Source: Promethearchaeota archaeon (GTDB taxonomy: Archaea > Asgardarchaeota > Lokiarchaeia > Sigyniarchaeales > SOKP01). From it: a DNA stretch of 64,000 nt. The stretch spans positions 32,001-96,000 of the forward strand of contig JAHLWP010000008.1 of NCBI GenBank assembly GCA_019057865.1, given 5' to 3'. Shown piece by piece: positions 4,133-24,300 of the stretch; position 1 is the stretch's first letter; each line of letters begins with the position of its first letter. Below the pieces are notes generated by a model. It was not told where the DNA came from, did not search any database, and saw nothing but the letters and a program-made list of their open reading frames with translations. Position numbers and translations under genes: made by a program.

Positions 4133-4657
4133 ATGAACGATGAAGAACCTCCAAGACCTAGTGGCTTATCTATAGGTACAAAAGCCCCACTCTTTATTAC
4201 ACAAGATATATATGGAAATGAAATGAAATTATCCAAACTTCTCGAAACTTATGATGGGGTAATGATAGACTTCTTTCGGGGAAATTGGTGAAGTCATTGT
4301 AAAAAACATTTAAAAATTTTGACTGAAAAAATATCAGAATTCAAAAAAAGAAATATAAAGCTTATCTCTATAGCTAGCGACAGTGTAAGATTATTAACAG
4401 AATTTAAGGAAGAAAATGGATTTACTGTTGACATTATCTCTGATCGTGGAGCCAAAATTGCTAAAGGATATGATGTTTATTGGTTTGCTCCAGGTGGAGG
4501 TAAAAATTACAAATTTAAACAAGCCGTACCTAGTAAATTTCTGATTAATAATGACGGAGAAATAGTATGGACATATATTGGTAAAGATAAAACAGACCGA
4601 CCTTCGATAGAATTAATGACAGAAATTATTGATAAAAAAATTAAAAATCCTGAATAA
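4133..4657 (+). CDS. Peroxiredoxin-like (AhpC/TSA) selenoprotein, UxxC motif, 174 aa
   Basis: ATG 4133 is in frame with ORF 4319..4657; GLSIGTKAPLF...DFFRGNW-TGA(4289-4291)-SHC; TGA sits at the redox-active position; SECIS-like hairpin just after the stop. Confidence 0.85.
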
Positions 4658-6077: not shown

Positions 6078-7019
6078 TTAAATATTGAAATCGTCCTCAA
6101 AATCATCATATTCTACCTCAAGACGTTTCTTTTCATCTTCTTTCTTTTCCTTCTTTATTTCTTTGCGTTCCTTATGTTTCAGTTCATCATATCTTTTTAT
6201 ATAGATTTGTTCATATTTTTCTCTTAAGGTTTCAACATCTTTAACGGCTCCTATTTTGTCTTCCAAACCATCTTCAAAAAAATAGTTCTTCTTGAATTTG
6301 CTTGCCGGAATCCCAGCATATATCCACTCCCTTTCTAAAACTTGCCCAACAGTAGTAACTGAATTTGCTGCTAATATGCATTTTTGACCAATTTTAGTAC
6401 CTGGCATAACTATTGAATGGGAACCAATTCTTACATCGTCTTCAATAACAGTCTTCCTGATTATTAAGAGATTGCCAATAATACAAGCAGATTGAATAAT
6501 TGCTGCCTGACCGACAACCACATTTTTGCCAAAGTCAATAAATTCGGTGTCAACCCATCCCTCGAAAAGTGAATTTGAGATTTTTGTTTTTACTCCAAAC
6601 GCTTTGAAGCATATATTATCTAAAATTCCAGGGAAAGGAAATCTGTGGGCAAGCCAAATAGGCCACCTCTTAATCGTATTACGAAGACTCCAGTACCGAT
6701 AATCTTTATCAGCAGCAGTTCTTAAAAAAACACCTTCTTTGGGATGGTGAATAACATTAACTATAACCAACAAAATCTTTGCAAAAAATATTGCCGCAAA
6801 GACAATTGTGACATACATCAAGATAGCTAAAAGAGGAAGAAATGTATAAAAATGGATGGGTCTTTCGTAATTCCATAGCAACCGCCAATAAACCCAAAAT
6901 TCTAAGAGAAGCGGAATTATACTTGCCCATATAAGGAAAAAGTAAAAGATTAAATATTTTTTCTTCACTAAAACTGTTGGAGTAAAAGGACCCAACCTCA
7001 TCGTGTTTGGTACAGACAT
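6078..7019 (-). CDS. Membrane protein with 2 TM + left-handed beta-helix domain (module C of Pls-terminal-domain-like system)
   Basis: Start MSVP at 7019 behind GAGGAG; two hydrophobic helices, PKEGVF..DYRYW, hexapeptide repeats, WIYAGIPA; paralog of 18240..19091. Confidence 0.8.
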   Translation of the reverse strand: MSVPNTMRLGPFTPTVLVKKKYLIFYFFLIWASIIPLLLEFWVYWRLLWNYERPIHFYTFLPLLAILMYVTIVFAAIFFAKILLVIVNVIHHPKEGVFLRTAADKDYRYWSLRNTIKRWPIWLAHRFPFPGILDNICFKAFGVKTKISNSLFEGWVDTEFIDFGKNVVVGQAAIIQSACIIGNLLIIRKTVIEDDVRIGSHSIVMPGTKIGQKCILAANSVTTVGQVLEREWIYAGIPASKFKKNYFFEDGLEDKIGAVKDVETLREKYEQIYIKRYDELKHKERKEIKKEKKEDEKKRLEVEYDDFEDDFNI

Positions 7020-7023
7020 GCTT

Positions 7024-8910
7024 TTACATCTCCTCAACTTTTTTATTATCTTGGTTAATTTCTTTAGTTTTAATCAGTTCTTTTTTATCTTCATCTATAT
7101 TTACTTCATGCTCAATTTCAAATTTCTTTTCCTCATCGACATCTCTTTTCATCAGTATTTCCCTGCGGGATAATGCATATTTATTTGGTTTGAATTTAAG
7201 GACTGGTATTCCAGTGTAAATCCAACCCGGCTCAAGAATTTGATTCACTGTAGTTGTACTAGCCGCACCCACCATTGTTTCTTTACCTATAATTGTACCT
7301 GGGACGATAGTGGTCTGTGCACCAACCATTACATAGTCGTCTAAAATTACACTTCGAATTAATAGATATTTTCCAACGATCATCGAGGACATTATCACCG
7401 TGGCCTGACCAATTAAATTCTTTCTCCCAAATTTAATAAACTCACCATCACACCAAGTATCATTAAGATGGCTAGAAGTATCCATATTGATTCCTAAAAG
7501 CTTAAAAGCTAGTACGTCCGTCCATGTAAATGGCGAATTTCGAAAAAGCCAAAAAGAGAGTTTCCTTAACTCAGTTCTAATCATCCAGAATTCAAAATCA
7601 GTGTTTTTAATTTCAGCCTTGAAAACACCTTCTTTAGGTTTATGAAGTAAATTTATGAGAATTAAGAATAGTTTGCTAAATATGAGACAGGCTAAAGTAA
7701 AAAAATAAATTGAGCCAAATATGGCCAGAGGAAGAAATGCTATAATAGGAATCCAATTTTCATCAAGAAAATACCAATACCAAAAAATAGCAACGAGAAA
7801 TCCTGAAAGAAAAAAGATGGGAAGATAGATTGCTAAAAATTTGATATTCACTCTACTTATTGCTGAACTTGTAGTAAAATCAATAGCTAAGTCTTCATCC
7901 GTTAAAGAATTTATATCAATTTTATCCTCAGGTAATTCAGCAATTAGTTGTTCTTTATCATCTTCGGGTTTATTATCATTTAATTCTTCAGCTTTTAATT
8001 TTTTCAGTAGCTTTTTATCTTTATACCCTTCAATATTTTCATTTCTCTCTAAATCTTTCTGAGATACATCTAAATAACCCATTATTTTTCTCCTAAATAT
8101 CTTTCTTAATGGCATGCCCCAGTAAAAGTTGTTACCTTTTATCAGACTATGTTTTACGGCTGAAGCCCAAGGAAGTAAATAAGAATTATCGTGTATTTCT
8201 GATCCAGGACCAACCAGATTGGTTGCGGCAGCGGTTACATTATTTCCTACTTTAACTTTAAAATATGAGATATTTCCGAATATTCCTTCCACCACATGAG
8301 TCCCTAAAGCTGAATTCACGCCGAAATAGCAGTTTTCGCCGATCTCGAGAAACTTATCATTAACTATAGATTCCTCAAAGGTAGTTCCTGTCCCTATTTT
8401 ACTTGCCCCCAAAAAGTTAAAAAACCAATTGCTAAGCCAGGGAAAAACGCCTTTCGCGAAGGAATTCTTTCCGTATTTAAGTATGAAGGATCTTATATGA
8501 TAGTAGTTTGCAGCTTTGCTTCTTATATTTCGTGGAATTATTCCTTCTTTGGAGGGAGAGATTTTTTCAGTTATTTTCCATAATAATCGAGTAGCTAAAG
8601 CTAAAAAGGACAAATGAAGTAAATAACACCCAATAAGAACAAATGGCATAGATAGCAGAGACAATAAGGGTTTAAGTTCTATGAAAAGTGATAAGAAATC
8701 TGGTGTTTCTAAAACATTTGGAAGAAAAAATTGTAGAACATAATAAAAAAAGATTATTCCAGAAAACACCCACGATATATAAAAAATAAAGGCAAATAGA
8801 GTTATATAAACATGATAATGGAGCTCAACTTCTTCTTTTATGATTTCATCCTCAGAGTCATTCGAATTTGGTGAATCACTATCTTCAGCTTCTTCGCTCA
8901 TTTTTATCAT
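7024..8910 (-). CDS. Fused A+B modules (each 2 TM + LbH) of Pls-terminal-domain-like system
   Basis: N-half aligns with 19983..20906, C-half with 19096..19986; hexapeptide repeats in both halves. Confidence 0.8.
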   Translation of the reverse strand: MIKMSEEAEDSDSPNSNDSEDEIIKEEVELHYHVYITLFAFIFYISWVFSGIIFFYYVLQFFLPNVLETPDFLSLFIELKPLLSLLSMPFVLIGCYLLHLSFLALATRLLWKITEKISPSKEGIIPRNIRSKAANYYHIRSFILKYGKNSFAKGVFPWLSNWFFNFLGASKIGTGTTFEESIVNDKFLEIGENCYFGVNSALGTHVVEGIFGNISYFKVKVGNNVTAAATNLVGPGSEIHDNSYLLPWASAVKHSLIKGNNFYWGMPLRKIFRRKIMGYLDVSQKDLERNENIEGYKDKKLLKKLKAEELNDNKPEDDKEQLIAELPEDKIDINSLTDEDLAIDFTTSSAISRVNIKFLAIYLPIFFLSGFLVAIFWYWYFLDENWIPIIAFLPLAIFGSIYFFTLACLIFSKLFLILINLLHKPKEGVFKAEIKNTDFEFWMIRTELRKLSFWLFRNSPFTWTDVLAFKLLGINMDTSSHLNDTWCDGEFIKFGRKNLIGQATVIMSSMIVGKYLLIRSVILDDYVMVGAQTTIVPGTIIGKETMVGAASTTTVNQILEPGWIYTGIPVLKFKPNKYALSRREILMKRDVDEEKKFEIEHEVNIDEDKKELIKTKEINQDNKKVEEM

Positions 8911-9038
8911 TAAATTCTAATTCCAAACTATTTTTAATAAATTTTACTTTATTAGAATGCAATTGAAAATTATAATACTTTAATAGATATTTTTTTCCTT
9001 TTAAACTTATAAATCTTAAGTAAAAATAAAAATTTATT

Positions 9039-9434
9039 ATGAGAAACAAATGTGAAAATTGCGGAAAGTGTTGCTTAGAAACAGAAATGATTCTTTCTCC
9101 ACAAGATATTAAAATAATAATAAATAGTTTGCCTAATAATATAAGAAAAGAAGATTTTACATTTAAAAATATTAATGAGCAGTATCAATTAAGAAATATT
9201 GAAGGCCATTGCTTTTTTTTAGATTATTCTAATAAGGAATGTAAGATCTATAAGTTTCGACCTCAAGGATGTAAGTTTTACCCGTTAATATATGATATTA
9301 ATAAAAAAAAGTGTAGACTTGATGAAGAATGTCCTAGAAATAACCTTTTCTATAAAGACAATCAAACTTTAAGAAATGAATGTCAAAATGTAAAGATGTT
9401 TTTAAAAAATCAATTAAATATAAAAATCAATTAA
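9039..9434 (+). CDS. YkgJ-family CxxCxxCC protein
   Basis: CENCGKCC, CFFL, CKIYKFRPQGCKFYP. Confidence 0.85.
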   Translation: MRNKCENCGKCCLETEMILSPQDIKIIINSLPNNIRKEDFTFKNINEQYQLRNIEGHCFFLDYSNKECKIYKFRPQGCKFYPLIYDINKKKCRLDEECPRNNLFYKDNQTLRNECQNVKMFLKNQLNIKIN

Positions 9435-9513
9435 AGAGCAAGATTATTTAGCAGATTTCAGGTTTATGGATAATTGGGAAGATTTTGATGATTTTTAATA
9501 AATAAATTTTTTT

Positions 9514-12420
9514 TTATTTTTTTTCAATAATAACGTCATTATCAATTATTAATTCAATAATTGGAACGTTAGGAATGGATGTAGGAAGAGCCGATACATC
9601 AGTGTTCAATAGCTCTATGCTATATTGTACACCTTTTATTTTCCCTATTTCACTGAAGATCCAATCGAGATTTTTAGATAAATCTGGATAGCCTTGAATT
9701 TCAATTTCTACCAGATCCTCAGTAGGATTAACAGAAAATAAAAACGATTGATCATACAAATGATCCACTGGTTCACATGGAAAATGAGGCTCTATTTCGA
9801 AATTGAGCTCCAATTTTGTTATTATATTTTTAATTTTCTGAAATTTTTTAGGAAGCATCCGTAATAGTTCTGATTTAGAAAAAGTGATTTTGTCTCTTAC
9901 AAAAAATATTTCATACCAAAGTTCTGACAGATCACTGTATTCTTTAAACCACGTATTTTTTAACTCCTTTACTATATTTGGATCATTTAAATTTCTTAGA
10001 TCGCTATTTCTTGATTTAAATCGTCTCGTAACTTCCTCCTTATACATCCGCTCATCAATTATTTCGTCACATCTGAGGTGGAGGATATCTCTTATTGATA
10101 GAGTCTTTAGCATATCTTTCAAGGTTTTCGATCCTAGCATCTTTTTGAACTTTTCTTTGTCTTGGTCTACAGAATTGCCTAGATGACGTACATCAAGTAA
10201 GGCATTAAAATATGTTCTAATCTCTTTTTTCGTCGTTTCGTCCATGACTTCATATCTTTTAAGGAGCGTCAATGATAGATTATAAAAGATAAGTTCTTTT
10301 GTGACCTCTTTAACTATTTTAAACAATAACTGCTTTAAATCAGATGACCAGTAGACAAAATTACCTGCTTCGCTTCCAAGTATATAGTTGAGTATATAAA
10401 CATCACTGCTAATACTAACATCTCCACTAAATAAATCTTCCACTGGTCCCTTAAGATTTGGAGCTATGATAGCAGATGCCTCTTCTATGGATAAGAAACC
10501 AAAATCTTTAAACATAAATTCTTCTTTCCAAAAGGAATCCAAGTACCCATACTCAAGTAAAAAACGAAAAATTCGAAAATGATGAGGATTCCACCACTCA
10601 AATCCGACAGACAATTCCTTGACTATTGCTTTTGAATTTGGTATGATGATCTCAGATATATCTTTCTTAGACAAATAAGCTAAATAACCATGCTCTATTA
10701 AAATTAGAAACCTATAAGAATCCCACTGTTTAAATCCGTTAGCCAATTCTTTTTTGACTATCGTTATTAAATCTTTATCTTCGTACAAGTACATATGCTC
10801 CAGTAAAAAATCTACGCTTTTGAGAGGAATTTTTTGTAAGATATCTTGAGTTAGTATCGCTAATTTTTCGTCCTTATTCAAGAGGTTGAAATACCCACCA
10901 TTGCTAGAAAATAGAAAATTTAAGAATCCAGCAGATGAGTCTTCTTTAAGCATCTTTGATACTTCCTCTTTAATAATGATTAATAATTCTTCTCTGTCTG
11001 GTGCCGTTTTCAATTTCCTCAACTCTTTAAACACACTATCAAAATCGTAAAGGGAATTCAGATCTGTAAAGTAATATTTTTTATATAATCGAAAATTTCT
11101 TCGGATTAATTCTTTCATTACAGTCTTGAATTCAAACGGCAAACTTTTCAAAATTTTTTTCGACGCATTGTGTAAGATGTCTTGAGTTAACACAGTTGAT
11201 AACTCTTCTTTCTTTAGCAAGAAGAGATACTTTTCAAAGTTAATATCCATTTTTACAATTTTAGACAAATTCGGCGTTATAATCGCAGATAATTCTTCTA
11301 TTGATAAAAAATCTAAATAATTATACTTAATTAGAATGTCAATCTTCTTAGAATCCCCATGATCAAATATTTCAGTTATTTCCTCTTTGACCATCGTTTT
11401 TAACCATTCATTTAATGATTTACCAAGTAAATAACCGAGTATGGCGCGATCACTGACACGATCTCTGAACACATCTTTCAATAATTTTTTGAATTTCGGA
11501 GTTATAATCGCAGAGAGTCTTTCTTTAGAAATATATTCCAAGTATCCACGCCGATAAAAAAAATAAAGAGTTTCTAAGGATTCTTTTTCAAGTATTTTGG
11601 CTAAAGCTTCTTTGACCATCGTTTTCAAATCTTCATTTAATGATCTTTCAAGTAAATAGCTAATCAGTTGGAGATCTTGTTTCCTACCTCTTAACAAATC
11701 TTTTAATAATAAGTAGAAATTCGGAGGTATGATCTCAGATAGATCTTCTTTGGACAAAGATAAGGAATCCAAGTGTCCGTGATCAACTAAAAAACGAATC
11801 ATATCAAGATCTCCCCGTCCTAATCCTTCGGCTAATTCCTCTTTGAGTATTGATTTTAATTCTTCATTTAACGATCTCTCAAGTAAATAGTTGAGTAGTT
11901 GGTGATCTTCTTTAGAAACACTTCCTGTAAGGACGTGAATTAATTCTTTAAAATTCGGAGTTATAATTGCAGATAAATCTTCTTTAGACAAAGAATCCAA
12001 GTATTCGTGTTCAAATAAAAAACGAATCATCTCTACAGATCCATGTTCAAATCTTTTAGCGATTTCTTCTTTTAGTATCATACTACTAACGCATCCTTCT
12101 TCAACCAACTTCTTAAGCAGAGAAAAGGATAAATTACTGTGCAACATTCTAGTATTAAAGTTGTTTTCTACCCAGGCTTGTAAATTGGAACAATGGACGA
12201 AAAATCTGGTTTCTGGATCGATTACAATAGTCTTAGGGGATTCTTTAATATCATCGATTGATTCTAGCAGTAGTACATTTTCAATTTCATCAGTGTGAAC
12301 GGTAGTTAACACATGGGAACATTGGATAAAATGATGTCCATTTATGTAAATTGCGGTTTTATCATTCTCTGTAAGAACGACTTCTAAATAGTCCGTGATT
12401 GGGAAACGTTTTTTAATCAT
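9514..12420 (-). CDS. Lokiarchaeal HCSNLQAW-domain protein with helical tandem repeats
   Basis: N-terminal KTAIYING..FIQC...FVHCSNLQAWVENNFNTRMLHSNLSFSLLKKL followed by repeats xKEExA.......IRFL.E.GYLD.LSKE.LS.II.PN. Confidence 0.75.
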   Translation of the reverse strand: MIKKRFPITDYLEVVLTENDKTAIYINGHHFIQCSHVLTTVHTDEIENVLLLESIDDIKESPKTIVIDPETRFFVHCSNLQAWVENNFNTRMLHSNLSFSLLKKLVEEGCVSSMILKEEIAKRFEHGSVEMIRFLFEHEYLDSLSKEDLSAIITPNFKELIHVLTGSVSKEDHQLLNYLLERSLNEELKSILKEELAEGLGRGDLDMIRFLVDHGHLDSLSLSKEDLSEIIPPNFYLLLKDLLRGRKQDLQLISYLLERSLNEDLKTMVKEALAKILEKESLETLYFFYRRGYLEYISKERLSAIITPKFKKLLKDVFRDRVSDRAILGYLLGKSLNEWLKTMVKEEITEIFDHGDSKKIDILIKYNYLDFLSIEELSAIITPNLSKIVKMDINFEKYLFLLKKEELSTVLTQDILHNASKKILKSLPFEFKTVMKELIRRNFRLYKKYYFTDLNSLYDFDSVFKELRKLKTAPDREELLIIIKEEVSKMLKEDSSAGFLNFLFSSNGGYFNLLNKDEKLAILTQDILQKIPLKSVDFLLEHMYLYEDKDLITIVKKELANGFKQWDSYRFLILIEHGYLAYLSKKDISEIIIPNSKAIVKELSVGFEWWNPHHFRIFRFLLEYGYLDSFWKEEFMFKDFGFLSIEEASAIIAPNLKGPVEDLFSGDVSISSDVYILNYILGSEAGNFVYWSSDLKQLLFKIVKEVTKELIFYNLSLTLLKRYEVMDETTKKEIRTYFNALLDVRHLGNSVDQDKEKFKKMLGSKTLKDMLKTLSIRDILHLRCDEIIDERMYKEEVTRRFKSRNSDLRNLNDPNIVKELKNTWFKEYSDLSELWYEIFFVRDKITFSKSELLRMLPKKFQKIKNIITKLELNFEIEPHFPCEPVDHLYDQSFLFSVNPTEDLVEIEIQGYPDLSKNLDWIFSEIGKIKGVQYSIELLNTDVSALPTSIPNVPIIELIIDNDVIIEKK

Positions 12421-12598
12421 ATTTAGACTCTACTCTATAAACAGAACTACAGTATTTAAAATTATGCGCTAATTTACAATAGAAAAAGCAAGGCGACAGT
12501 TAGTTAAGGCGCTCGCCGCAAGTGTTGCAATATATATCATTTTTTTCCACTACACTTTTACACGTTTTACAATATATCTTTTTTTCAATATAAGTTTT

Positions 12599-14359
12599 TT
12601 AAGCAAGATCTTTTTTCTCTTCTTCGATGTTAACTTCATGTTCAATTTCAAACTTTTTACGCGCATCTACATCTTTCTTAACAATAAGGTCCCTACGAGA
12701 TTCTGCATATTTATTAGGTTTTAATTTTCTCACTGGCATTCCAAAATACACCCATCCTGGTTCTAAAACTTGATCATATACAGTAAATGACATAGCACCA
12801 ACAAAAGTCTCATTGCCTACAATTGTACCTGGAGCGATTGTGGTCTGTCCGCCAATAAGAACGTAATCACCAAATATTACCTTCTTGATAATCAAATATT
12901 TGCCAACAACCATGGAAGACATGATAGTTGCCGCTTGCCCGATTAAATTTCTGCGCCCGAATTGAATAAACTCTCCATCACACCATGAATCATACAGACC
13001 ACTCGAAAAATCCATCTTTACTCCAAAAAGCTTGAAAGCTAGTACATCAGTCCATGGAAATGGCCAATTTCGTACGAGCCAAAGGGAAATTTTTTTTAGC
13101 TCAGTTCTTAACATCCAGAATTCAAAATCTGTATCGCCAATTTCAGCCTTGAAAACACCTTCTTTGGGACGATGAAATAAATTTATAAGAATCAAAAAAA
13201 GCTTGCTAAAAAAGAAACATCCAAGTATAAAAGTTAGATGCATTATTATCAACATCGCAGGCAAAAATAAGAGCATTAAATACAAGTTTGCAACGAAATA
13301 AGTGTACATATAGAAAAGCATTGAAACTAAAAATCCACTACAAAAAAATATTGGGATATATACTGCTAAAAATTTTATATTAACTCTACTGATTGCACTA
13401 CTCGTTGTGAAATTAAGCGATAAATCTTTAATATCATCCTCCTCATTCTGGTTTTGTGACTCAAGCGGTGGAGTATCAGTTGAATCTTCAACGTCCTCTA
13501 ATTGTTTTAGGCTTTCGGGATCTATTTTTAAATAGTTCTTGATTCTTCTTTTAAATATTTTCCGGAGGGGTAGTGCCCCTTGCGAAAAATAATAACCATT
13601 TCCTTTTATCACACTATGTTTTGTGGCTGAAGCTAAAGGAAGTAAATAAGAGTTATCATATATTTCCGATCCTGAAGCAATTAGGTTCATCGCTGCTGCT
13701 GTAACATTATCTCCTACTTTAATTTTAAAGTATGAGATATTACCGAATATTCCATCGACCAGATGGGTCGCTAAAGCTGAATTCACGCCGATATAGCAGT
13801 TTTCGCCAATCTCGAGAAACTTATCATTAACTACAGATTCTTCTAATATCGTTCCTTTCCCAATTTTGCTTGATTTTACAAAATTATAAAGCCAAGGCAC
13901 TAGCCATGGAAAAAACCCTTTCGTGAAAGTATTTTTGGGATATTTCAGCAGAAAAGATCTTATATGATAATAGTTTAATGTCTTACTTGGGAGATTTCGA
14001 GGTATTATTCCTGATTTCGAAGGAGATCTTTTCTCTGTTAATCCCCAGAACCAGCGAGCAATTAAAGCAATTAAAAATAAGTGAATTAAGTAGCATCCGA
14101 TAATGACTAATGGCATAGATATTAATGCCAAAAGGGGTTTAAAATTGATAAAAAGTGAAAGAAAATTTGTTGTTTCTAAAAAGTAAGGTAAAAAATAAAA
14201 CAATACATATGTCATGAAGATTATTACTGGGACCAAATAAGATATTAAATAAATAGTAAAAAAAATAATTAAATACCAGAAATATTGAAACTGGACATCT
14301 TCTTTTATTATATTTTTGATTGAAAGACTTGGACTTACTTTTTCTTTTATTTTAGGCAT
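12599..14359 (-). CDS. Second fused A+B (TM + LbH) paralog
   Basis: Collinear with 7024..8910; near-identical DNA blocks (13771-13840 vs 8304-8373). Confidence 0.8.
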   Translation of the reverse strand: MPKIKEKVSPSLSIKNIIKEDVQFQYFWYLIIFFTIYLISYLVPVIIFMTYVLFYFLPYFLETTNFLSLFINFKPLLALISMPLVIIGCYLIHLFLIALIARWFWGLTEKRSPSKSGIIPRNLPSKTLNYYHIRSFLLKYPKNTFTKGFFPWLVPWLYNFVKSSKIGKGTILEESVVNDKFLEIGENCYIGVNSALATHLVDGIFGNISYFKIKVGDNVTAAAMNLIASGSEIYDNSYLLPLASATKHSVIKGNGYYFSQGALPLRKIFKRRIKNYLKIDPESLKQLEDVEDSTDTPPLESQNQNEEDDIKDLSLNFTTSSAISRVNIKFLAVYIPIFFCSGFLVSMLFYMYTYFVANLYLMLLFLPAMLIIMHLTFILGCFFFSKLFLILINLFHRPKEGVFKAEIGDTDFEFWMLRTELKKISLWLVRNWPFPWTDVLAFKLFGVKMDFSSGLYDSWCDGEFIQFGRRNLIGQAATIMSSMVVGKYLIIKKVIFGDYVLIGGQTTIAPGTIVGNETFVGAMSFTVYDQVLEPGWVYFGMPVRKLKPNKYAESRRDLIVKKDVDARKKFEIEHEVNIEEEKKDLA

Positions 14360-14583
14360 ATAATAAATTTTATATTAATAATTTTCAGATATATTTACTA
14401 GTTAAGTATTTTTTTCTAAAAAACTCTGATAATAATTAATAATATTTGTTATATTAAGTTGAATCTTTAGAATTTTTAAATAAAATGGACTCCAATACCC
14501 TTTGGATACAGATACTTTAGATAGATATTATTGATTACTTTCAGAAATAAAAAATAAAGAAAAAAATAAAGAAAAAAATAAAA

Positions 14584-14838
14584 TTAAGATTTATTTCTCT
14601 TTCTTATTAAGATGAAAGCTATGACACCCACCACCTCCAAAAGTATGTACACATCATAACCAGGAATTTCAGGTGATGGTTGCTTAACCACATCCTTTAT
14701 CATGATATTTTCCGCAGAAGTCTCAAACCCTAATGAATTGTTCACATAAAATTTGAGAGTAACAGCTCCATTTTCTCGCTTATTCCATTCCGTCTGGCTA
14801 ATTTGTCCTGTGGGTCCGGTGAAAGTAATATTTATCAA
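14584..14838 (-). pseudogene. C-terminal remnant of a surface protein with IPGY-TM-basic sorting tail
   Basis: GAVTLKFYVNNSLG Ig-like repeat end, then EIPGY, TM helix, RKRNKS; no signal peptide; TTG start. Confidence 0.55.
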
Positions 14839-14923
14839 TATCTTTATAAAAAAAGCTATCCTATATAGTTTGAAATCTACAATTTAGTAATATTTCAATA
14901 TTCATTGTAGAGGATGAGAAATC

Positions 14924-16495
14924 TTGAAGAAAAAAAATTTTAAAATCTTAATATTAATAATAGTTGTAATTTCAACAGTATTTTTTATAAATAGATCTTT
15001 TGCAACTAAAAATCAAACTATTGGAGAATCAAGTGTAACTAACATTGAGATACCTCAATTATCATTTGAGACTTTATGGACACCTAATGGTATGGCCATA
15101 TGTACAGCGGAAGATAATCAAAATTTCCCTCAAATATGTAGTGATGGGGCAGGGGGAGCAATCATTACTTGGGTAGATGATAGAAGCTCGGAATTAGATA
15201 TTTACGCTCAGAGGGTTGATTCAGATGGAAATATTCAATGGACACCTAACGGAACAGCCATCTGTACCGCAGACAATGACCAAGAGGATCCTCAAATATG
15301 TAGTGATGGGGCAGGGGGAGCAATCATTACATGGGATGATCAGAGAAGCTTATCTGATGGAATTTATGCTCAGAGGGTTGATTCAACTGGTAATATTCAA
15401 TGGACGCTTAACGGAACAGCAATTTGTACAGCACCTGAGTTCCAATCTGGACCTCAGATATGCAGTGATGGGGCAGGGGGAGCAATTATAACATGGTTGG
15501 ATACTAGAGGAGGTAGTGATAATATCTACACACAAAAAGTTAATGCAACTGGAGATGTGCAATGGGTCATCAATGGTATAGCTATATATATAGAAGGTTT
15601 TATCCAATTAGCCCCTCAAATATGCAGTGACGGAGCAGGAGGGGCGATTATTGCATGGGATGATCTTAGAAGCGAATTAGATGAAGATATTTACGCCCAA
15701 ATGGTTGATTCAGATGGAGTTGTGCAATGGGCAAGTAATGGTACAGCTATATGTACGGCAAATAATGAACAACTGTATTATCAAATATCTGCTGATGGAG
15801 CAGGGGGGGCAATCATAACATGGTCAGACTATAGAATTAATCCGTCAGGTGATATTTACGCCCAGAAAGTAGACTCGTCCGGGAATGTACAATGGACTAC
15901 CGATGGAATAGCTATATGCACGAATATTGACGGATTCCCCCTAAAATTTGTCCCCCAAATCTGTAGTGATGGAGGAGGAGGAGCGATTATCTCATGGAAC
16001 GGTTATGGCATGGGTATGGATATCTATGCTCAGAGAGTTGATTCAACTGGAAATGTACAATGGACTGTCAATGGCATAGCTATATGTACAGCAGATGGAA
16101 GGCAAGTTGATCATCAAATTTGTAGTGACGAAAATGGGGGTGCAATCATTACTTGGACAGATGGTAGATACTCAATTAGGGATATTTACGCTCAGAAAGT
16201 TAGTGCTAATGGAAATACACAATGGACGTCTAATGGGAAACCAATATGCACGGAAAGCAATACCCAAGCATACCCGCAAATTTGCAGCGACGGAACAGGT
16301 GACGCAATCATCACCTGGGAAGATCTTAGAAGTGGTGCAGACTACGACATTTACGCTCAGTGTATAAAAGATGTTCCATCGAAAGGAGGAGGAGCAATTC
16401 CATTTGGAAATTACTACCTCCTTTTTACTTTGATTAGTATACTTTCTCTAGTAATTCTTGAAAAATGCCGAAATATCCGCAAATTCAAATCCTAA
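14924..16495 (+). CDS. Secreted/surface beta-propeller-like repeat protein with C-terminal membrane anchor
   Basis: Signal peptide; about 8 repeats of roughly 56 aa, WT.NG.AICTA...Q..PQICSDGAGGAIITW.D.R...DIYAQ.VDS.G..Q; IPFGNYY-TM-basic tail. Confidence 0.85.
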   Translation: MKKKNFKILILIIVVISTVFFINRSFATKNQTIGESSVTNIEIPQLSFETLWTPNGMAICTAEDNQNFPQICSDGAGGAIITWVDDRSSELDIYAQRVDSDGNIQWTPNGTAICTADNDQEDPQICSDGAGGAIITWDDQRSLSDGIYAQRVDSTGNIQWTLNGTAICTAPEFQSGPQICSDGAGGAIITWLDTRGGSDNIYTQKVNATGDVQWVINGIAIYIEGFIQLAPQICSDGAGGAIIAWDDLRSELDEDIYAQMVDSDGVVQWASNGTAICTANNEQLYYQISADGAGGAIITWSDYRINPSGDIYAQKVDSSGNVQWTTDGIAICTNIDGFPLKFVPQICSDGGGGAIISWNGYGMGMDIYAQRVDSTGNVQWTVNGIAICTADGRQVDHQICSDENGGAIITWTDGRYSIRDIYAQKVSANGNTQWTSNGKPICTESNTQAYPQICSDGTGDAIITWEDLRSGADYDIYAQCIKDVPSKGGGAIPFGNYYLLFTLISILSLVILEKCRNIRKFKS

Positions 16496-16738
16496 ATTAA
16501 ACCATATCCTAAATTAAACCAATAATAAGCTTAAATTTTTTTTTCTTTCTTTCAATATATTTTTACATTAAAATACAGAGATTTAGTTTTTAATTATGAG
16601 AAAGGGTAATAGTAAGGCCATCCACCTTTATGAATCGCATAAAAGAATAATAATTATAATTTTTAATAGGAATATAGTTAAGCAACATTTATTTCTTATT
16701 TATTTAAATTATAAATAAAATAACTAAGTGAACTCAAA

Positions 16739-17212
16739 TTGAAAGATAAATTTAATTTAATAGGAAAAAAAATCAAGGAATTTTCACTATCAAATTCTAG
16801 AGGGGAAACTAGAGATATCCGTGAATTTGAAGGTGAAAAAAACGTAGTAATTGTACTATTCAGGAGTAAAAGTTGACCTTATTCTAAAGCTCATTCAGAA
16901 AAATTAGGAAATGACTATGAAAAATTCATAGAACTAAATACAGAATTGTATGCAATCTTACCAGATGATTTCAAAAATGCTAAAAATTTTGAATCGAATT
17001 TTGCGAAAAAGTATCCTATATTTTATGATCATAAAAAAAAGGTAAATAAAATGTTAAAACAAGAAGTAAAGCCATTAAAATTAGGGAGAATGCCAGCGCT
17101 TCTTATCATAGATAAACAAGGGATTATAAGATATGCATATTATAGTGATTCTATGGATGATATCCCTGAGAATGAGGATTTATTTGAGGTACTTGAGAAC
17201 TTGAATAACTAA
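16739..17212 (+). CDS. Peroxiredoxin-like (AhpC/TSA) selenoprotein, UxxS motif, 157 aa
   Basis: TTG 16739 in frame with ORF 16946..17212; IGKKIKEFSL...VVIVLFRSKS-TGA(16874-16876)-PYS; C-terminal PALLIIDKQGIIRYAY; the protein has no Cys. Confidence 0.8.
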
Positions 17213-17403
17213 AACGATTTGGTATGAATAAAATAGAATAAATTTTTGAATTTTATGCATAAAAGTTAGCCACACTTTACCAAATCAAAAATTGTTGCCA
17301 TATTACCACCTTAAGTAATAATTTGAATAATGGTAGAATGGATTAAGAAAATAATATTAATAAATATTACAGAACCATTTATCAAAACTATTTATTTCAG
17401 AAT

Positions 17404-18189
17404 TTAACTTAAGTAATAATCCTTTCTTCTGTCATAAATGATATCATTGAATTCATTCAGTTTCTTATCTCTAACTTTTTCTATATCAATTTCTACCAAA
17501 TCTATAGATGCTTTATCTGAGGGGGCTGATGATAAAACTTTTCCATCATATGAAGTAATCTGACTCTCCCCTGTGAATTTAAAATTATCCTCGCCCCTTG
17601 TCTCTCGTCCAATTCTGTTAGCTGTCACAGCATAAACTCGATTTTCTAAACATCGCGTAATTATTGCTTTTTGACAATAAGGAAGTACAAGATTTGCTGG
17701 ATGAGCGATAATATCGGCCCCAAGAAGAGTTAGAGTTCGAGCAGTTTCAGGAAAGAACCAATCAAAGCATATCATTATTCCTATTTTGATTCCATTGATT
17801 TCATATATTTTTAATGGTTTGTCACCAGGAACAAACCATAATTTTTCCTTGTAATACAAGTGAAGTTTTCTATACACTCCTAACAATTCTGAACCAGATA
17901 TTATCATAGCAGAATTAAATATTTTATCTTTATCTTTTTCTATAAACCCTCCAACTATAGTAGCCGAAGCCTTTTTAGATAAATCCTTTAAAAATTGAGC
18001 AGTTTGTCCATCTAATCCTTCTGATAATGATTCAGCTTCCTTTTTTGAAATAAATGTGTAACCTGTAGCAAATAATTCGGGTAAAACAATTAAATCTGCT
18101 CTCAATTTGGCTGTTAATTTTTCAATTTCCTTAAAATTTCGCTTTTTATCTCCAAAGAATGGTGATGTTTGAATATATCCAACTTTCAT
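17404..18189 (-). CDS. Nitrilase-superfamily carbon-nitrogen hydrolase
   Basis: E-K-C triad motifs LPELF, YRKLHL, ICFDWFFPE. Confidence 0.9.
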   Translation of the reverse strand: MKVGYIQTSPFFGDKKRNFKEIEKLTAKLRADLIVLPELFATGYTFISKKEAESLSEGLDGQTAQFLKDLSKKASATIVGGFIEKDKDKIFNSAMIISGSELLGVYRKLHLYYKEKLWFVPGDKPLKIYEINGIKIGIMICFDWFFPETARTLTLLGADIIAHPANLVLPYCQKAIITRCLENRVYAVTANRIGRETRGEDNFKFTGESQITSYDGKVLSSAPSDKASIDLVEIDIEKVRDKKLNEFNDIIYDRRKDYYLS

Positions 18190-18239
18190 TTTACATCAAA
18201 TATAATTTTATTTTAATAGAATAAGAAAATAAGGTTATT

Positions 18240-19091
18240 TTAATCAATTTCAGTTTCTTTATCCCTTCGCATTGTGTATAAATCCTCATATTTTGCAAGC
18301 GTTTTTAAATCCTCTTCTCCTTTCCTATCAATTATGTCTTCTAAATTATCTTCAAAATATACATTTTTCTTGTATTTCTTTGCTGGTGCTCCTAAGTAAA
18401 TATAATTTTCTTCTAATTCTTGACCAACAGTGGTCATTGAGTTACCTCCTAATATAGAATTCTTTTTCATATGCGTTCCAGGCATAACAATACTATGGGC
18501 ACCAATGACTGCGTTATTCTCAATAATCGTTTTCCTTATGATAAATAAATTTCCAACTATGATTGCTGATTGGACAATTGCGCTCTGTCCACAGACTATG
18601 TTTTTACCAAATTCTATAAATTCTGTATCTACCCACCCCTCAAAAAGAGAATTAGAATATTTAGTTTTAACACCAAACATTTTTAAACAGATATTATCCA
18701 TAAAAGGAAGGGGAAATTTATGAGATATCCAAAATGGCCATTTTTTTATAGTACTTCTTAAACTCCAATATCTATAATCTTTATCAGAAGGGTGCCTAAG
18801 AAAAACCCCCTCGCGCGGTTTATGAATAAGATTAACGATAACAAGAAAGATTTTTGCAAAAATTAAAGATACCATTATGGATGTTAAGTACATAACAAAT
18901 ATTAGAAGAGGTAAGAAAAATAAAAAATGAATAAATTTCCAGTCATATAGAAGATTCCAATACCACCAAAATTCAAACTGAATTGAAAAAATACTAATCC
19001 AAATTAAAAAAATATAGAAAGCTAAATATCTCTTTTTTACTAAGACTAACGTAGTATTTGGTCCAACTTTTAAACTCGATGGCACTGACAT
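18240..19091 (-). CDS. TM + LbH module C (split operon)
   Basis: MSVP start at 19091 behind AAGGAGG; paralog of 6078..7019. Confidence 0.8.
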   Translation of the reverse strand: MSVPSSLKVGPNTTLVLVKKRYLAFYIFLIWISIFSIQFEFWWYWNLLYDWKFIHFLFFLPLLIFVMYLTSIMVSLIFAKIFLVIVNLIHKPREGVFLRHPSDKDYRYWSLRSTIKKWPFWISHKFPLPFMDNICLKMFGVKTKYSNSLFEGWVDTEFIEFGKNIVCGQSAIVQSAIIVGNLFIIRKTIIENNAVIGAHSIVMPGTHMKKNSILGGNSMTTVGQELEENYIYLGAPAKKYKKNVYFEDNLEDIIDRKGEEDLKTLAKYEDLYTMRRDKETEID

Positions 19092-19095
19092 ATTT

Positions 19096-19986
19096 TCAAT
19101 CCTCCTTATTATCATTTATTAGCTTTTTCTGCTCCTCATCAATATTAACTTCTTGTTTAACTTCATATTTTACTTCTTCATCTACATGTTTCCTATAAAT
19201 GATATCCCGTCTTTGTTCTGCGTACTTATTAGGTTTTAATTTTCTTGAAAATTGTGGGCCTAAGTAAATCCAAGCCTGCTCTATAATTTGATTTGGAATT
19301 GTTGTAGAAAAAGCAGCAAGGATTGATTCTTTACCCATAATAGTACCAGGAGAAACATTTGATACACCACCGACAACTATATGATCTCCAAGGATGATCT
19401 TTTTAATTATCAAATAGTTTCCTACGATACTAGAGCTCATTATCACACTTCCTTGCCCTACCGTAATGTTTCGACCAAATTCTATAAACTCTCCATCCAC
19501 CCAAGCATCTTGTAAGTGGCTAGAAAAATCAATTCTTACTCCTAACCACCGGAAACCCCACATTACTACCCATGGGAGTGGACCGTTACTCATAAACCAA
19601 AGTACTAGTTTTTTAAGTTCTATACGTAATCTCCAAAATTCATAATCTTGATTACCTTCTTCTGCTCGAAATACACCCTCTTTAGGTTTATGAACCATAT
19701 TTATGATAAGAAGGAATGCCTTTGTAAATATAGCAATTCCAAATATAAAAATGAAATATAAAATGAATGACCATACGGGAAGTAAGAACATATTTATATA
19801 CCATGGGATATATTGTGATGCGTCGAAGAAAACCGCAACCGCCATGTACCCTGAAATCCACATGATTGGGATATATAAAGCAAGAAATTTATAACCAATT
19901 TTGCTAATTACACTACTTGTTACAAAATCAATTGTATAATCTATTTTATTAGCATTAATTTTTTGCTCTTCTATATTCTCACTCAT
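19096..19986 (-). CDS. TM + LbH module B (split operon)
   Basis: DFVTSS.IS, HKPKEGVF, WVDGEFIEFGR; matches the C-halves of the fused paralogs. Confidence 0.8.
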   Translation of the reverse strand: MSENIEEQKINANKIDYTIDFVTSSVISKIGYKFLALYIPIMWISGYMAVAVFFDASQYIPWYINMFLLPVWSFILYFIFIFGIAIFTKAFLLIINMVHKPKEGVFRAEEGNQDYEFWRLRIELKKLVLWFMSNGPLPWVVMWGFRWLGVRIDFSSHLQDAWVDGEFIEFGRNITVGQGSVIMSSSIVGNYLIIKKIILGDHIVVGGVSNVSPGTIMGKESILAAFSTTIPNQIIEQAWIYLGPQFSRKLKPNKYAEQRRDIIYRKHVDEEVKYEVKQEVNIDEEQKKLINDNKED

Positions 19987-20906
19987 TTAGTCTTTTCTCT
20001 CTTCTTCTTTTTTGTCTGTTCTGATAAATTTTTTTTTAATTCTTCTGCTCTTTTCAAATCTTCCTCTGTGACTTGTAGATATTCCATAACCTTTCTTTTA
20101 AACACTTTCCTGAGGGGAGTTCCAAAATAATACGAGTTCCCTTTCAAGATATTATATTTTGATGCTCCTGTCATTGGTAACCACCAAGAATTATTTCCCG
20201 TATCTACACCAGGACCAAAACAATTAAATCCCGCAGATGTAACATTATTTCCAATTTTTACTTTAGCAAATGAAATATTACCAAAAATGCCTTCTACAGC
20301 ATGGGAGCTAATACCTGGATTTGTACCAATATAAACATTTTCTCCAACTTCTATAAATCGATCCCCAGCAAGTTGTTCCTCAATAACAGATCCCTTCCCT
20401 ATTTTATTAGTACCGACAAAATTATACATCCATTTCAATAGCCAGGGGAATGGGCCCCGAGAAAAAGCATTTTTGGGATACTTGATAATAAAACTTCTAA
20501 AATGGTAAAAATTCAGAGTTTTACTGGGTATATTTCGAGGGATAATTCCTGATTTGGAGGGTGACTTATTTTCCGAATAGTTCCAAAACCAACGAGTTAT
20601 TAGAGCTACAATAAACAAATGTATTAAATAACATATTATAATTACAAACGGTATTGTTATGGAGGCAATGAGGGAAGGTAAATTAGTAAAAATAGATATA
20701 AAATTTTTTATTTCCAAGAAATAAGGTAAATAAAAAAGCATTATATACATCATAAAAATTATACTAGGTATTAAAAAAGAGCAAAAATAGATAACATAGA
20801 ACGCTGGTAACCATAAATACAATCGTAAACTAATTTCTTCTTTAATAATATTATTTCCGGAATTTTCTATCTGATCTGAACTTTTCGATTCCAACTTTTT
20901 TCCCAC
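19983..20906 (-). CDS. TM + LbH module A (split operon)
   Basis: SPSKSGIIPRN, SHAVEGIFGNIS, YYFGTP; matches the N-halves of the fused paralogs; ATGA overlap with module B. Confidence 0.8.
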   Translation of the reverse strand: MGKKLESKSSDQIENSGNNIIKEEISLRLYLWLPAFYVIYFCSFLIPSIIFMMYIMLFYLPYFLEIKNFISIFTNLPSLIASITIPFVIIICYLIHLFIVALITRWFWNYSENKSPSKSGIIPRNIPSKTLNFYHFRSFIIKYPKNAFSRGPFPWLLKWMYNFVGTNKIGKGSVIEEQLAGDRFIEVGENVYIGTNPGISSHAVEGIFGNISFAKVKIGNNVTSAGFNCFGPGVDTGNNSWWLPMTGASKYNILKGNSYYFGTPLRKVFKRKVMEYLQVTEEDLKRAEELKKNLSEQTKKKKREKTK

Positions 20907-21394: not shown

Positions 21395-24300
21395 ATGACC
21401 AATAACTCATTCTCGTTAACAGATCTGTACCCAAAATATGTAATCAATTCAAAAGGCGAAAAGAAAAAATTCGATGAGAGTAATATTGCTAAAGTACTAA
21501 ACAAAGAGACAGGCTTGGATATGCACATTGCTGAAAAAGTTGCTGAAGATGTAATAAGAAAAATAATAGGTCTTGGAATAGAGGAGATTACCACTAATTA
21601 TATTAGAGAACTAGTTTGTGTGGAATTAACTCAACGCGGCCTGAATAAATATAGAAATCTGTTCGCTCGAGCTATAAATTTGGAGAATATCAGCTTTAAA
21701 TTAGATGAGACTTTTATTGAAAATTATGTAGGAAAGCGGCCAACTTTCGGCCCATTAGGTTACATTACATATAAAAGAACTTATGCAAGATTTATAGAAG
21801 CAGAGAATAGAAAAGAAGAATTCTGGGAAACCATTAGAAGAGTGGTTGAGGGTTGTTATTCAATCCAAAAAGAACATTGTATTAAACTTAGCTTACCATG
21901 GAGCGATGCAAAAGCACAAAAATCTGCTCAAACCATGTTTAAAAAGATATGGGATTTCAAATTTTTGCCTCCTGGAAGAGGTTTATGGATGATGGGAACA
22001 GAGTTTATTGCTCGCCATGGTTCTATGTCTCTTAATAATTGCGGATTCGCCTCTACAGAAGATATTGATCTAAAATATTCAAAAGCCTTTGAATTTGTAA
22101 TGGATGCTTTAATGTTGGGGGTTGGAGTAGGTTTTGATACAAAAGGAGCAGGAAAATTTAAAATCAAAAAACCACAAGAAGGTCATTTTGACTATCAAAT
22201 TCCTGATAGTAGAGAGGGTTGGGTTGAGGCTTTAAAACTAGTACTTGAAGCTTATTTCTTAGGGAAGCAAGTTCCAACTTATGATTTTAACCTCATTAGA
22301 CCGGCAGGGAAGCCAATAAGAGGCTTTGGAGGGATTGCCTCCGGACCAGGTCCTTTAAAGGAAATGCTCGAAGATATTCACAACATATTAGAAGCTCGAG
22401 TTGGGCAACCGATTACATCTGTTGATATTGTTGATATAATGAATTACATTGGTAAATGTGTTGTGGCGGGTAACGTTAGAAGGAGCGCAGAAATTGCTTT
22501 AGGAGATCCAGGTGATTTAAGTTTTGTGACATGTAAACAAGATCAAGAAAAATTATATTCTCATAGATGGGCTAGTAACAATAGTGTTTTTGCTGTAAAA
22601 GGCTTGGATTATTCATTCATTGCAAATCAAATAGCTGTGAATGGAGAGCCTGGAATTTTTTGGCTAGAAAACGCAAAAGCATATTCTCGAATGGGAGATA
22701 AGCCAGATTATAAAGATAAGAAAGCTGCTGGCGTAAATCCTTGTGGAGAACAGTCCTTAGAATCTTTCGAGCTGTGTTGTGTCACAGGAGATACAAGAAT
22801 TCAGATCAAAAATGGTGCTCCTCGAATCTCAGAGATGGTTGATAAAGAAGTAGAAGTATGGAATGGAGATCGTTGGTCAAAAGTCATCCCTTTTATAGCA
22901 GCTAAAGATAAGGAAATTTATCGAGTACATATATCAGATGGGTCTTATTTAGATTGCACTCTGGATCATAAATGGCATATCAAACCATCAACTGCCAGAA
23001 TTTTTCGATCAGTCCAGACAAAAGAGTTAAAACCAGGAGATTATGTAGTATCATTCGAAATTGATAAAGAATTCGGTGGTATCTATGAACCAAATGCATT
23101 TGAATATGGTTTATTTTCGGGTGATGGTTATATTGATAAAAATTATCCTATGGTTTGTATTTGTGGAGAAAAATCAAAATTAAAAGATCTTGATGTTAAA
23201 GGAACTTGGTATAAGGAACAAATAAAAGAAGGTTATAAAGAACCTTATAACCGACTGAATCTTAATGGTGTTATTGAATTAGAACTATCACTGATTCTGA
23301 ACGATAAATCTAGTGGCCTTCCTGATATTATTTTTAGTTGGGATCGTGAGTCAATATTAGAATTTATTGCAGGATTAATTGAGACTGATGGAAATTTATG
23401 TCATCAAGTAAATACAGATAACTATAGGATTTTTGGAAATGAAGAAAAAATACGAGATCTTCAGTTACTTCTTAGGAGAGTAGGAATAAATCATTCTAGT
23501 ATTTATTCTGCAGGTGAAGCTGGAGAAGAAACGAATTTTGGAATCAGAAATTATAGTATTTATTGTTTATTTATTCCATCATATGAATGTGGGGATATTC
23601 CTACTAGAATTAAAAAAGCAACTCGTATAGGGAAGAGGTATGTTATAAATAATCGCCATCCAGAGGGGAAATTTATTGATAGGGCTAGGAAACAAAAAAT
23701 TATAAAAATCGAGCAATCAAATAAAAAACAATCTGTTTATTGTTTTACAGAACCCAAAAATCATATGGGCGTATTTGGAAATGTTCTAACTTATCAATGC
23801 TTGGTAGAGACGTTTCCTTCGAGACATGACTCTTTTGAGGAGTTCCAAGGAACTTTAAAGTATGCTTATTTATATGCCAAATCTGTTACGCTTGTAAATA
23901 CGCATTGGCAAGAAACTAACGCAGTAATGCTTAAGAATCGGAGGATGGGAATTTCCCAAACAGGAATAATAGAAGCTTTTGTGAAATATGGAAGAAGGGC
24001 CATATTAGAATGGTGTGATAAAGGATATAAATATTTACAGGAACTAGACGAACAATACTCTGGTTGGCTTTGTATACCGAGAAGTATAAAACTCACAACT
24101 GTAAAGCCAAGTGGGACCGTAAGTTTGCTCCCAGGAGTACCACCTGGTATTCATTATCCTCATTCTGAATATTATATTAGAAGGATACGCATTTCAAAGA
24201 ATTCTGACTTAATTAAGCCACTTAAGAATGCGGGTTATTATATTGAAGAAGATTCATATTCACCAAATACGGTTGTTGTCGAATTCCCTGTCCATGAGAA

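Follow-up and report, generated by a model that had tools for sequence, protein, structure and literature searches.

Split and fused membrane beta-helix proteins of three types in a Promethearchaeota genome are distant relatives of the Pls/PosA terminal domain and candidate single-site acyltransferases

Six minus-strand genes in a 64,000-nucleotide stretch of a Promethearchaeota archaeon genome (contig C3, 32001-96000; genome of 4.26 Mb, 99.7% complete), referred to below as the window, encode eight copies of a module that combines a transmembrane hairpin with a left-handed beta-helix. The modules are of three types, A, B and C, which occur as separate and as fused genes and are distantly related to the terminal domain of the poly-lysine synthetases of the Pls/PosA type. 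We lean, without great confidence, towards the view that each set specifies a membrane acyltransferase of composition A:B:C with a single active site and a donor of the coenzyme A (CoA) type. An earlier annotation of this DNA, made from its letters alone (the original prediction), had already proposed parts of this picture; the gene order C-A + B, natural C-A-B chains, a confident structure model of such a chain, the match to the fold of maltose O-acetyltransferase (MAT) and galactoside acetyltransferase (GAT) and the single-module relatives in bacteria were newly seen here.

Results

Six genes and three module types

The six genes and their assignment to module types are as follows.

19983-20906, minus strand: type A module gene of the split set (307 amino acids; SPSKSG linker, YH.R motif, SSHAVEG)
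19096-19986, minus strand: type B module gene of the split set (296 amino acids; HKPKEG linker at 19675-19692; MSSSIVG at 19420-19440 replaces the His motif)
18240-19091, minus strand: type C module gene of the split set (HKPREG linker, QSAIIVG)
12599-14359, minus strand: fused A-B gene without adjacent C (586 amino acids; ATHLVDG of the A half at 13751-13771, MSSMVVG in the B half)
7024-8910, minus strand: fused A-B gene (628 amino acids; GTHVVEG of the A half at 8284-8304, MSSMIVG in the B half)
6078-7019, minus strand: type C module gene after the fused A-B gene (HHPKEG linker, QSACIIG)

The two long proteins were cut in the middle, which gave eight modules from the six genes, and these were compared by pairwise BLASTP. 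Identity within a type was 48-66% (E 1e-95 to 1e-138), B and C shared 33-40% (E about 1e-46 to 1e-58), and A shared 20-26% with B or C (E 1e-3 to 1e-16), which is still well above chance. The open reading frames and the division of eight modules into three types thus agree with the original prediction. Each chain in the window holds one or two units, never three. All eight modules consist of two hydrophobic helices, a P-x-[KRS]-[ES]-G linker, a [YFW]-x-x-R motif and hexapeptide repeats with a G-x-P end, and their alignments contain an invariant Gly, Arg and Gly. The Pfam hexapeptide family PF00132 exceeded its cutoff (27 bits) in three of the six proteins (41, 35.5 and 34.9 bits), while split C and split B remained under the cutoff and split A was unmatched; all modules still align as one family. 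The segment following the second transmembrane helix is rich in Lys and Arg and the loop between the helices is poor in them, a distribution that suggests a cytoplasmic location of the beta-helices.

As had been claimed earlier, one column of the beta-helix carries His only in type A (SSHAVEG, GTHVVEG and ATHLVDG), where B reads MSS(S/M)xVG and C reads QSA(I/C)I(I/V)G. In split A this residue, His202, is encoded inside SSHAVEG, with the codons of the motif within 20289-20309. Across 25 A-type representatives it is 96% conserved, and it is absent from B and C. The conserved residues of type A (P0006 numbering) are Tyr134, Arg137, Glu176, His202 and Lys250, each at 96-100%. Types B and C have conserved residues of their own, namely an invariant His-x-Pro-x-Glu-Gly-x-Phe immediately after the second transmembrane helix as well as Asp164/163, Thr229/228 and Gln233/232 (B/C numbering). 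Identity between genera was highest for C (68-72%), followed by B (64-67%) and A (61-63%). Their own invariant residues and their higher identity between genera therefore mark B and C, as far as sequence conservation can tell, as derived, His-less and strongly conserved constrained partners and not as decaying copies.

The gene boundaries are compact. The stop codon of A and the start codon of B in the split set overlap as ATGA. The reading frame of split C is open to 19115, with its likely start at ATG 19091 (MSVP) preceded by AAGGAGGA, and that of the C gene after the fused A-B gene is open to 7037, with its likely start at ATG 7019 (MSVP) behind GAGGAG. Both C starts (19091 and 7019) lie 4 nucleotides from the upstream stop codon with a GGAGG-like motif in front. 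The overlap, the short spacers and these motifs make the A, B and C genes of the sets look translationally coupled. A scan for bacterial-type promoters and terminators gave counts equal to those of shuffled sequence, its models being bacterial and not applicable to archaea.

One cyclic order in the genome and its lineage

A module profile search of the genome detected 17 modules. Eight are those of the window; the others belong to two additional sets (contigs C54 and C75) and to three single-module genes. The single modules of the genome are A-like or of other kinds. Both of the additional sets consist of a fused C-A gene with a B gene next to it. The order A-B-C, said in the original prediction to hold always, applies throughout the window, but C-A-B is its cyclic permutation and the rule is therefore a cyclic order. 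A B gene followed on the same strand in 15 of 15 examined C-A genes. Only A-B, C-A and C-A-B fusions were observed among 150 cluster representatives and 52 relatives of P0127, a natural C-A-B chain. In an alignment restricted to multi-module proteins, A-B is collinear with modules 2-3 of the C-A-B chains and C-A with modules 1-2; an alignment that mixed singles and fusions stacked every single on module 1 and was set aside. Gene order and fusions alike keep one cyclic order A-B-C.

The phyletic profile proposed with the original prediction was obtained from 200 genomes of the phylum searched with an A-type query, with counts that include cross-matches. A-type genes were found in 40 of 40 genomes of the archaeon's own family and in all three of the sister family, at 4-11 matches per genome; the rest of the sample gave weak matches only. 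Six other genera carry the same sets, with A, B and C adjacent or arranged as A-B + C. In another genus the fused A-B gene at 7024-8910 corresponds to an A gene and a B gene that are not joined, and orthologues of the lone A-B gene (12599-14359) occur in two other genera. Sets of the sister family comprise two genes, A and one B/C-like gene, an arrangement that hints at an intermediate stage. Co-occurrence of A, B and C across genomes, named earlier as a test of whether the types work together, was strict at every locus examined.

A real but distant link to the Pls/PosA terminal domain

The NCBIfam model TIGR02353 matched five of the six proteins with E 1e-7 to 1e-12 and split A with merely E 0.097. 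The best score was 47 bits against a curated cutoff of 423, and several of the alignments take in the transmembrane and linker parts (model positions 5-217). Profile comparison with the three modules of Pls (C1-C3), suggested earlier as a check, yielded hhalign probabilities of 97.7-99.2% for Asgard A, B and C against each of them (E 1e-12 to 1e-19, 109-196 columns). The resemblance noticed in the original prediction, membrane parts and linker included, is by these comparisons real but distant, and the six proteins are not members of the TIGR02353 family since they have no adenylation domain, no thiolation domain and scores below the cutoff. What they share with Pls/PosA, a family of nonribosomal-peptide-synthetase-like homopolyamide synthetases, is a repeating unit in which a transmembrane hairpin and a P-x-x-[ED]-G linker precede two helices and a left-handed beta-helix, with three such units to an assembly and a single one of them bearing a His-x-x-acid motif (in Pls the third, C3, with LQTHLFED). 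They differ in that the units of the window are spread over two or three genes without adenylation or thiolation domains, and in that the His-bearing unit stands first or in the middle of the Asgard chains and last in Pls.

No AMP-binding or PP-binding domain was found in the six proteins, as predicted for their surroundings, and the absence of carrier-type domains extends to the whole 99.7% complete genome, which gave zero matches to PF00550 where 11 of 14 control genomes were positive. The search for stand-alone domains that had been proposed thus returned 20 AMP-binding ligases, none near the loci, and no carrier. In Pls, the lysine loaded on the thiolation domain is linked by C1-C3 to an acceptor that diffuses freely (PMC9205021). 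As the genome has no carrier domain, this mechanism cannot apply unchanged.

An initial word search for relatives of at least 1100 amino acids found none; Pls-type proteins were found later by an exhaustive profile search, which returned 14332 matches at E <=1e-3 and 174 at E <=1e-30. Its matches include Pls-type proteins of 1296-2443 amino acids with three matched stretches, three-module proteins of about 650-960 amino acids without nonribosomal peptide synthetase (NRPS) parts, of which the two named clusters are from Elusimicrobiota, and natural Asgard three-module chains (P0127, P0277 and P0314). A tree of the modules separated those of Pls, of the Elusimicrobiota type and of the Asgard archaea into three clades, so triplication of the module probably took place more than once and that of the Asgard modules independently. 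An orthology that pairs A, B and C singly with Pls C1, C2 and C3 was considered and rejected, as neither the tree nor hhalign supports it. The three lineages agree in having His at the same beta-helix column in only one of three modules, which is A in the Asgard archaea, module 3 in Pls and module 2 (LLPHA) in the Elusimicrobiota type.

The same genome also encodes, on contig C40 (51686-52801, plus strand), a membrane beta-helix protein of another architecture; its 371 amino acids include about six hydrophobic segments and a C-terminal hexapeptide domain, and it is this domain that matches the last third of TIGR02353 (E 4e-12).

Structure models and fold

AlphaFold2 modelled the natural C-A-B chain P0127 (797 amino acids, 61-row alignment) with a mean pLDDT of 87.6 and a pTM of 0.89. 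Each of its modules contains two long helices, a short strand, two helices and the beta-helix. This order is that of the published model of PosA, whose three beta-helices are packed on six membrane helices with close to three-fold symmetry (PMC10522769). From the pTM, the element order and the fusions we infer that the three beta-helices of the A, B and C modules pack as a pseudo-trimer.

Foldseek and VIA-align found no solved structure that spans more than one module. The soluble part of one module (residues 642-797 of the model) was aligned by VIA-align to near-whole chains of VCA0836, MAT and GAT with Z 13.0-13.5 and a root-mean-square deviation of 2.6-2.8 Å over 147-149 residues (chains of 182-201 residues). 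These three proteins are CoA-dependent enzymes. The Asgard modules resemble MAT/LacA/GAT/VCA0836 (3hjj, 1kqa, 3nz2) in the two helices followed by a beta-helix, in the hexapeptide repeats and, in a weak sequence alignment, in a His just before the loop that interrupts the beta-helix, whereas the known enzymes are soluble homotrimers with three sites and the Asgard sets have a transmembrane hairpin and three subunit types, one of them His-bearing.

Among the weak sequence matches of the A profile were gamma-carbonic-anhydrase-like subunits of complex I (7ar9, E 4e-9). In plant and protist mitochondria these form a membrane-attached beta-helix heterotrimer of diverged paralogues, most sites of which are degenerate. 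The likeness to the Asgard sets, a membrane-attached beta-helix heterotrimer of diverged paralogues, is an analogy only; the complex I heterotrimer has no such transmembrane hairpin, is a component of a respiratory complex and comes from another beta-helix family, one with a zinc site.

Single-module relatives in bacteria and other archaea

A scan of species-representative genomes added one three-module gene, one adjacent pair of singles and about 75 single-module genes (about 220-260 amino acids) from Betaproteobacteria, Myxococcota, Bdellovibrionota, Planctomycetota, Poseidoniales and others. The singles have the hydrophobic hairpin, a P-x-[KR]-[DE]-G turn and H-x-x-E in the beta-helix, and all of them are His-bearing. 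Because H-x-x-E is present in all single-module relatives, the His-bearing state looks ancestral. NCBIfam has no family for the singles, for which TIGR02353 was the best or near-best match. By sequence, the six proteins of the window fall into a broad superfamily that has no name and in which only the Pls/PosA terminal domains have been studied. A protein atlas gave no more than Promethearchaeota clusters labelled 'hypothetical/acetyltransferase', and literature searches found no published description of stand-alone forms.

Neighbours of the singles include GT1 glycosyltransferases (25 loci), a large TPR protein (14 loci), PEP-CTERM proteins and MacB/FtsX permeases. Two singles at locus L014 are encoded in one operon together with all parts of a MacB-type pump and with a sugar-nucleotide dehydratase. 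The three-module gene of a Propionivibrio metagenome-assembled genome (L013) is flanked by an MMPL transporter and by a protein of 1509 amino acids (13209-17738, minus strand) in which GT1 is joined to an AMP-binding ligase that has no carrier domain and to an ABC1-kinase-like domain. Taken together, these bacterial contexts point to acylation of an exported glycoconjugate or lipid.

The bacterial and archaeal relatives share the module architecture with the Asgard proteins and carry H-x-x-E in the beta-helix, and the Elusimicrobiota-type triples likewise have a single His module. In contrast, most of these relatives are single genes, whose products are presumably homotrimers, and their GT1, PEP-CTERM, TPR, MacB and MMPL context is not seen at the Asgard loci. 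The original prediction, which considered an undescribed Asgard system, needs correction in that the module family is, judged by these matches, not Asgard-specific; many bacteria and other archaea have His-bearing single-module forms and other three-module forms. It is the split A/B/C heteromer that appears to be lineage-specific.

Neighbouring genes

A C-N hydrolase gene (17404-18189, minus strand; PF00795, E 3e-41) begins 50 nucleotides downstream of split C and was considered as a partner; it was rejected because it is missing at the orthologous loci in five other genera, whose C gene is followed by that of a UvdE endonuclease or by others. The C-A + B sets lie in deeply syntenic housekeeping blocks, with an acyl-CoA dehydrogenase (5 loci) and an unknown gene of 120 amino acids (7 loci) nearby.

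Several further genes adjoin the sets. Divergent from the A-B + C set is a gene for a small CxxCxxCC protein (9039-9434, plus strand; PF03692, YkgJ-type), and a neighbour with 46-49% identity to it stands beside the orthologous A-B + C set in two genera (L005 5333-5770, L006 12383-12787). Between the A-B + C set and the lone A-B gene sits the gene for a 968-amino-acid protein without Pfam match (9514-12420, minus strand), which has many helical repeats of about 45-50 residues with a '...LSKEDLSAIITPNF...' end. In three other genera the gene immediately after the lone A-B gene, or after A and B, codes for a DUF1295 membrane protein (PF06966, steroid-reductase/ICMT clan, E 1e-60; L005 14714-15547, L007 8843-9676, L008 9635-10462); the genome of the window has only a distant relative, on contig C29 and not beside its lone A-B gene. 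The ribonucleotide reductase gene at 21395-24649 (plus strand), with an intein-like insert from about '...CVTGDTRIQ' to 'VLTYQC', is also a neighbour of A, B and C in several genera (L007-L009), apparently through nothing more than synteny.

The remaining observations concern other genes of the window. A 523-amino-acid protein (14924-16495, plus strand) with a signal-like N-terminus, about nine 'PQICSDGAGGAIITW...DIYAQ.VDS.GN.QW' repeats and a hydrophobic C-terminal anchor is probably a surface repeat protein. Two short thioredoxin-fold/peroxiredoxin-like reading frames (4319-4657 and 16946-17212, plus strand) resemble C-terminal parts of longer frames.

Discussion

The acyltransferase reading that we favour can be spelled out as follows. 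Each set would give rise to one heterotrimeric membrane enzyme with A, B and C in a 1:1:1 ratio, whose three transmembrane hairpins would form a six-helix bundle and whose three MAT/GAT-like beta-helix domains would sit as a pseudo-trimer on what is probably the cytoplasmic face of that bundle. The ancestral His-x-x-Glu/Asp would be kept by subunit A alone, where the His would have a catalytic role in the single active site, while B and C, non-catalytic yet indispensable, would complete the trimer and probably shape the substrate site or a membrane conduit. The acyl group would be transferred from a phosphopantetheine thioester, here presumably acyl-CoA because the genome has no carrier protein, and the acceptor may be an amine or hydroxyl of a membrane-associated or exported molecule such as a lipid head group, a glycolipid or an envelope polymer. 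Paralogous sets in one genome would differ in donor or acceptor. The single-site pseudo-trimer of the original prediction fits the fusions, the co-occurrence and the confident C-A-B model; a Pls-type polymerase, its other suggestion, is unlikely as such because the genome is devoid of carrier domains.

Several points weigh against this reading. The evidence for the assembly consists of pTM, element order and fusions, and the AlphaFold2 model of the A-B protein of the window (7024-8910) was weak (pLDDT 61.6, pTM 0.56), with the same element order per module. In a weak phmmer alignment (E 0.07) His202 falls 3-4 residues past the catalytic His of MAT, where the same loop starts. No C gene adjoins the lone A-B gene. 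A conserved enzyme partner or operon context was not found in the Asgard loci examined, and the acceptor is a guess that draws partly on the bacterial contexts.

Another reading is a polymerase that would work without carriers, in which A:B:C iteratively joins activated monomers (aminoacyl-CoA, acyl-adenylate or aminoacyl-tRNA from unlinked enzymes) by amide bonds and exports the growing chain by way of the six-helix bundle. We consider such an enzyme unlikely, even though the only characterised relatives, the Pls/PosA terminal domains, polymerise with a freely diffusing acceptor chain (PMC9205021, PMC10522769), the homology to them takes in the transmembrane and linker parts, the genome encodes 20 AMP-binding enzymes and the three-module gene at L013 adjoins a carrier-less AMP-binding ligase. 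The genome lacks a carrier domain, neither the five sets nor their orthologous loci in other genera have a linked gene for a ligase or for amino-acid activation, the Asgard modules form a clade separate from the Pls modules without one-to-one orthology, and the closest solved folds are simple acetyltransferases. That Loki-type Asgard archaea use carrier-independent A:B:C synthase-exporters to build and extrude an amide- or ester-linked envelope polymer or an acylated lipid is a slight prospect; if true, such a synthase-exporter would be the Pls polymerisation machine reduced to a free-standing minimum, and each cell would have several paralogous ones.

A heterotrimeric acyltransferase also assumes that the types mix. 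Were they instead to form A3, B3 and C3 homotrimers, with the fused proteins as trimers of chains bearing A3 and B3 heads, A3 would be a normal three-site acyltransferase and B3 and C3 would serve something else. The solved beta-helix acyltransferases are homotrimers, single-module His-bearing relatives that are presumably homotrimers are widespread, the genome itself has lone A-like and other single modules, and A-B modelled by itself was not confident. All this is set against a single C-A-B chain that is one confident unit (pTM 0.89), a single cyclic order held by gene order and fusions, the translational coupling of A, B and C, and the fact that B3 and C3 heads would miss the motif of every single-module relative although B and C are the most conserved types; we regard separate homotrimers as very unlikely. 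The same His-less state of two of the three subunits could also indicate a device without catalysis, with the beta-helix cap as scaffold or gate on a six-helix channel or as a sensor, comparable to the gamma-carbonic-anhydrase-like heterotrimers that act as structural components of mitochondrial complex I and whose subunits appear among the A-profile matches (7ar9); the absence of linked metabolic partner genes agrees with this. We give it a slim chance, as the conservation of His-x-x-acid reaches 96% in A and every single-module relative has the motif, the nearest folds belong to active CoA-dependent transferases, and the characterised Pls/PosA relatives are enzymes.

To our knowledge, the Pls/PosA terminal domain, which makes commercially used poly-lysine, has no solved structure and no defined active site. 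The natural series described here, from single-module proteins through two- and three-gene sets to two- and three-module chains with one His module, offers a handle on which parts of that domain are catalytic and which are scaffold. The module itself would be an autonomous membrane acyltransferase unit that is present in many bacteria and archaea without NRPS parts. In the archaeon's own Loki-type family, its presence in every searched genome and its identity of 60-70% between genera point to a core, unrecognised modification of the membrane or envelope, which bears on questions of Asgard lipids and cell surfaces.

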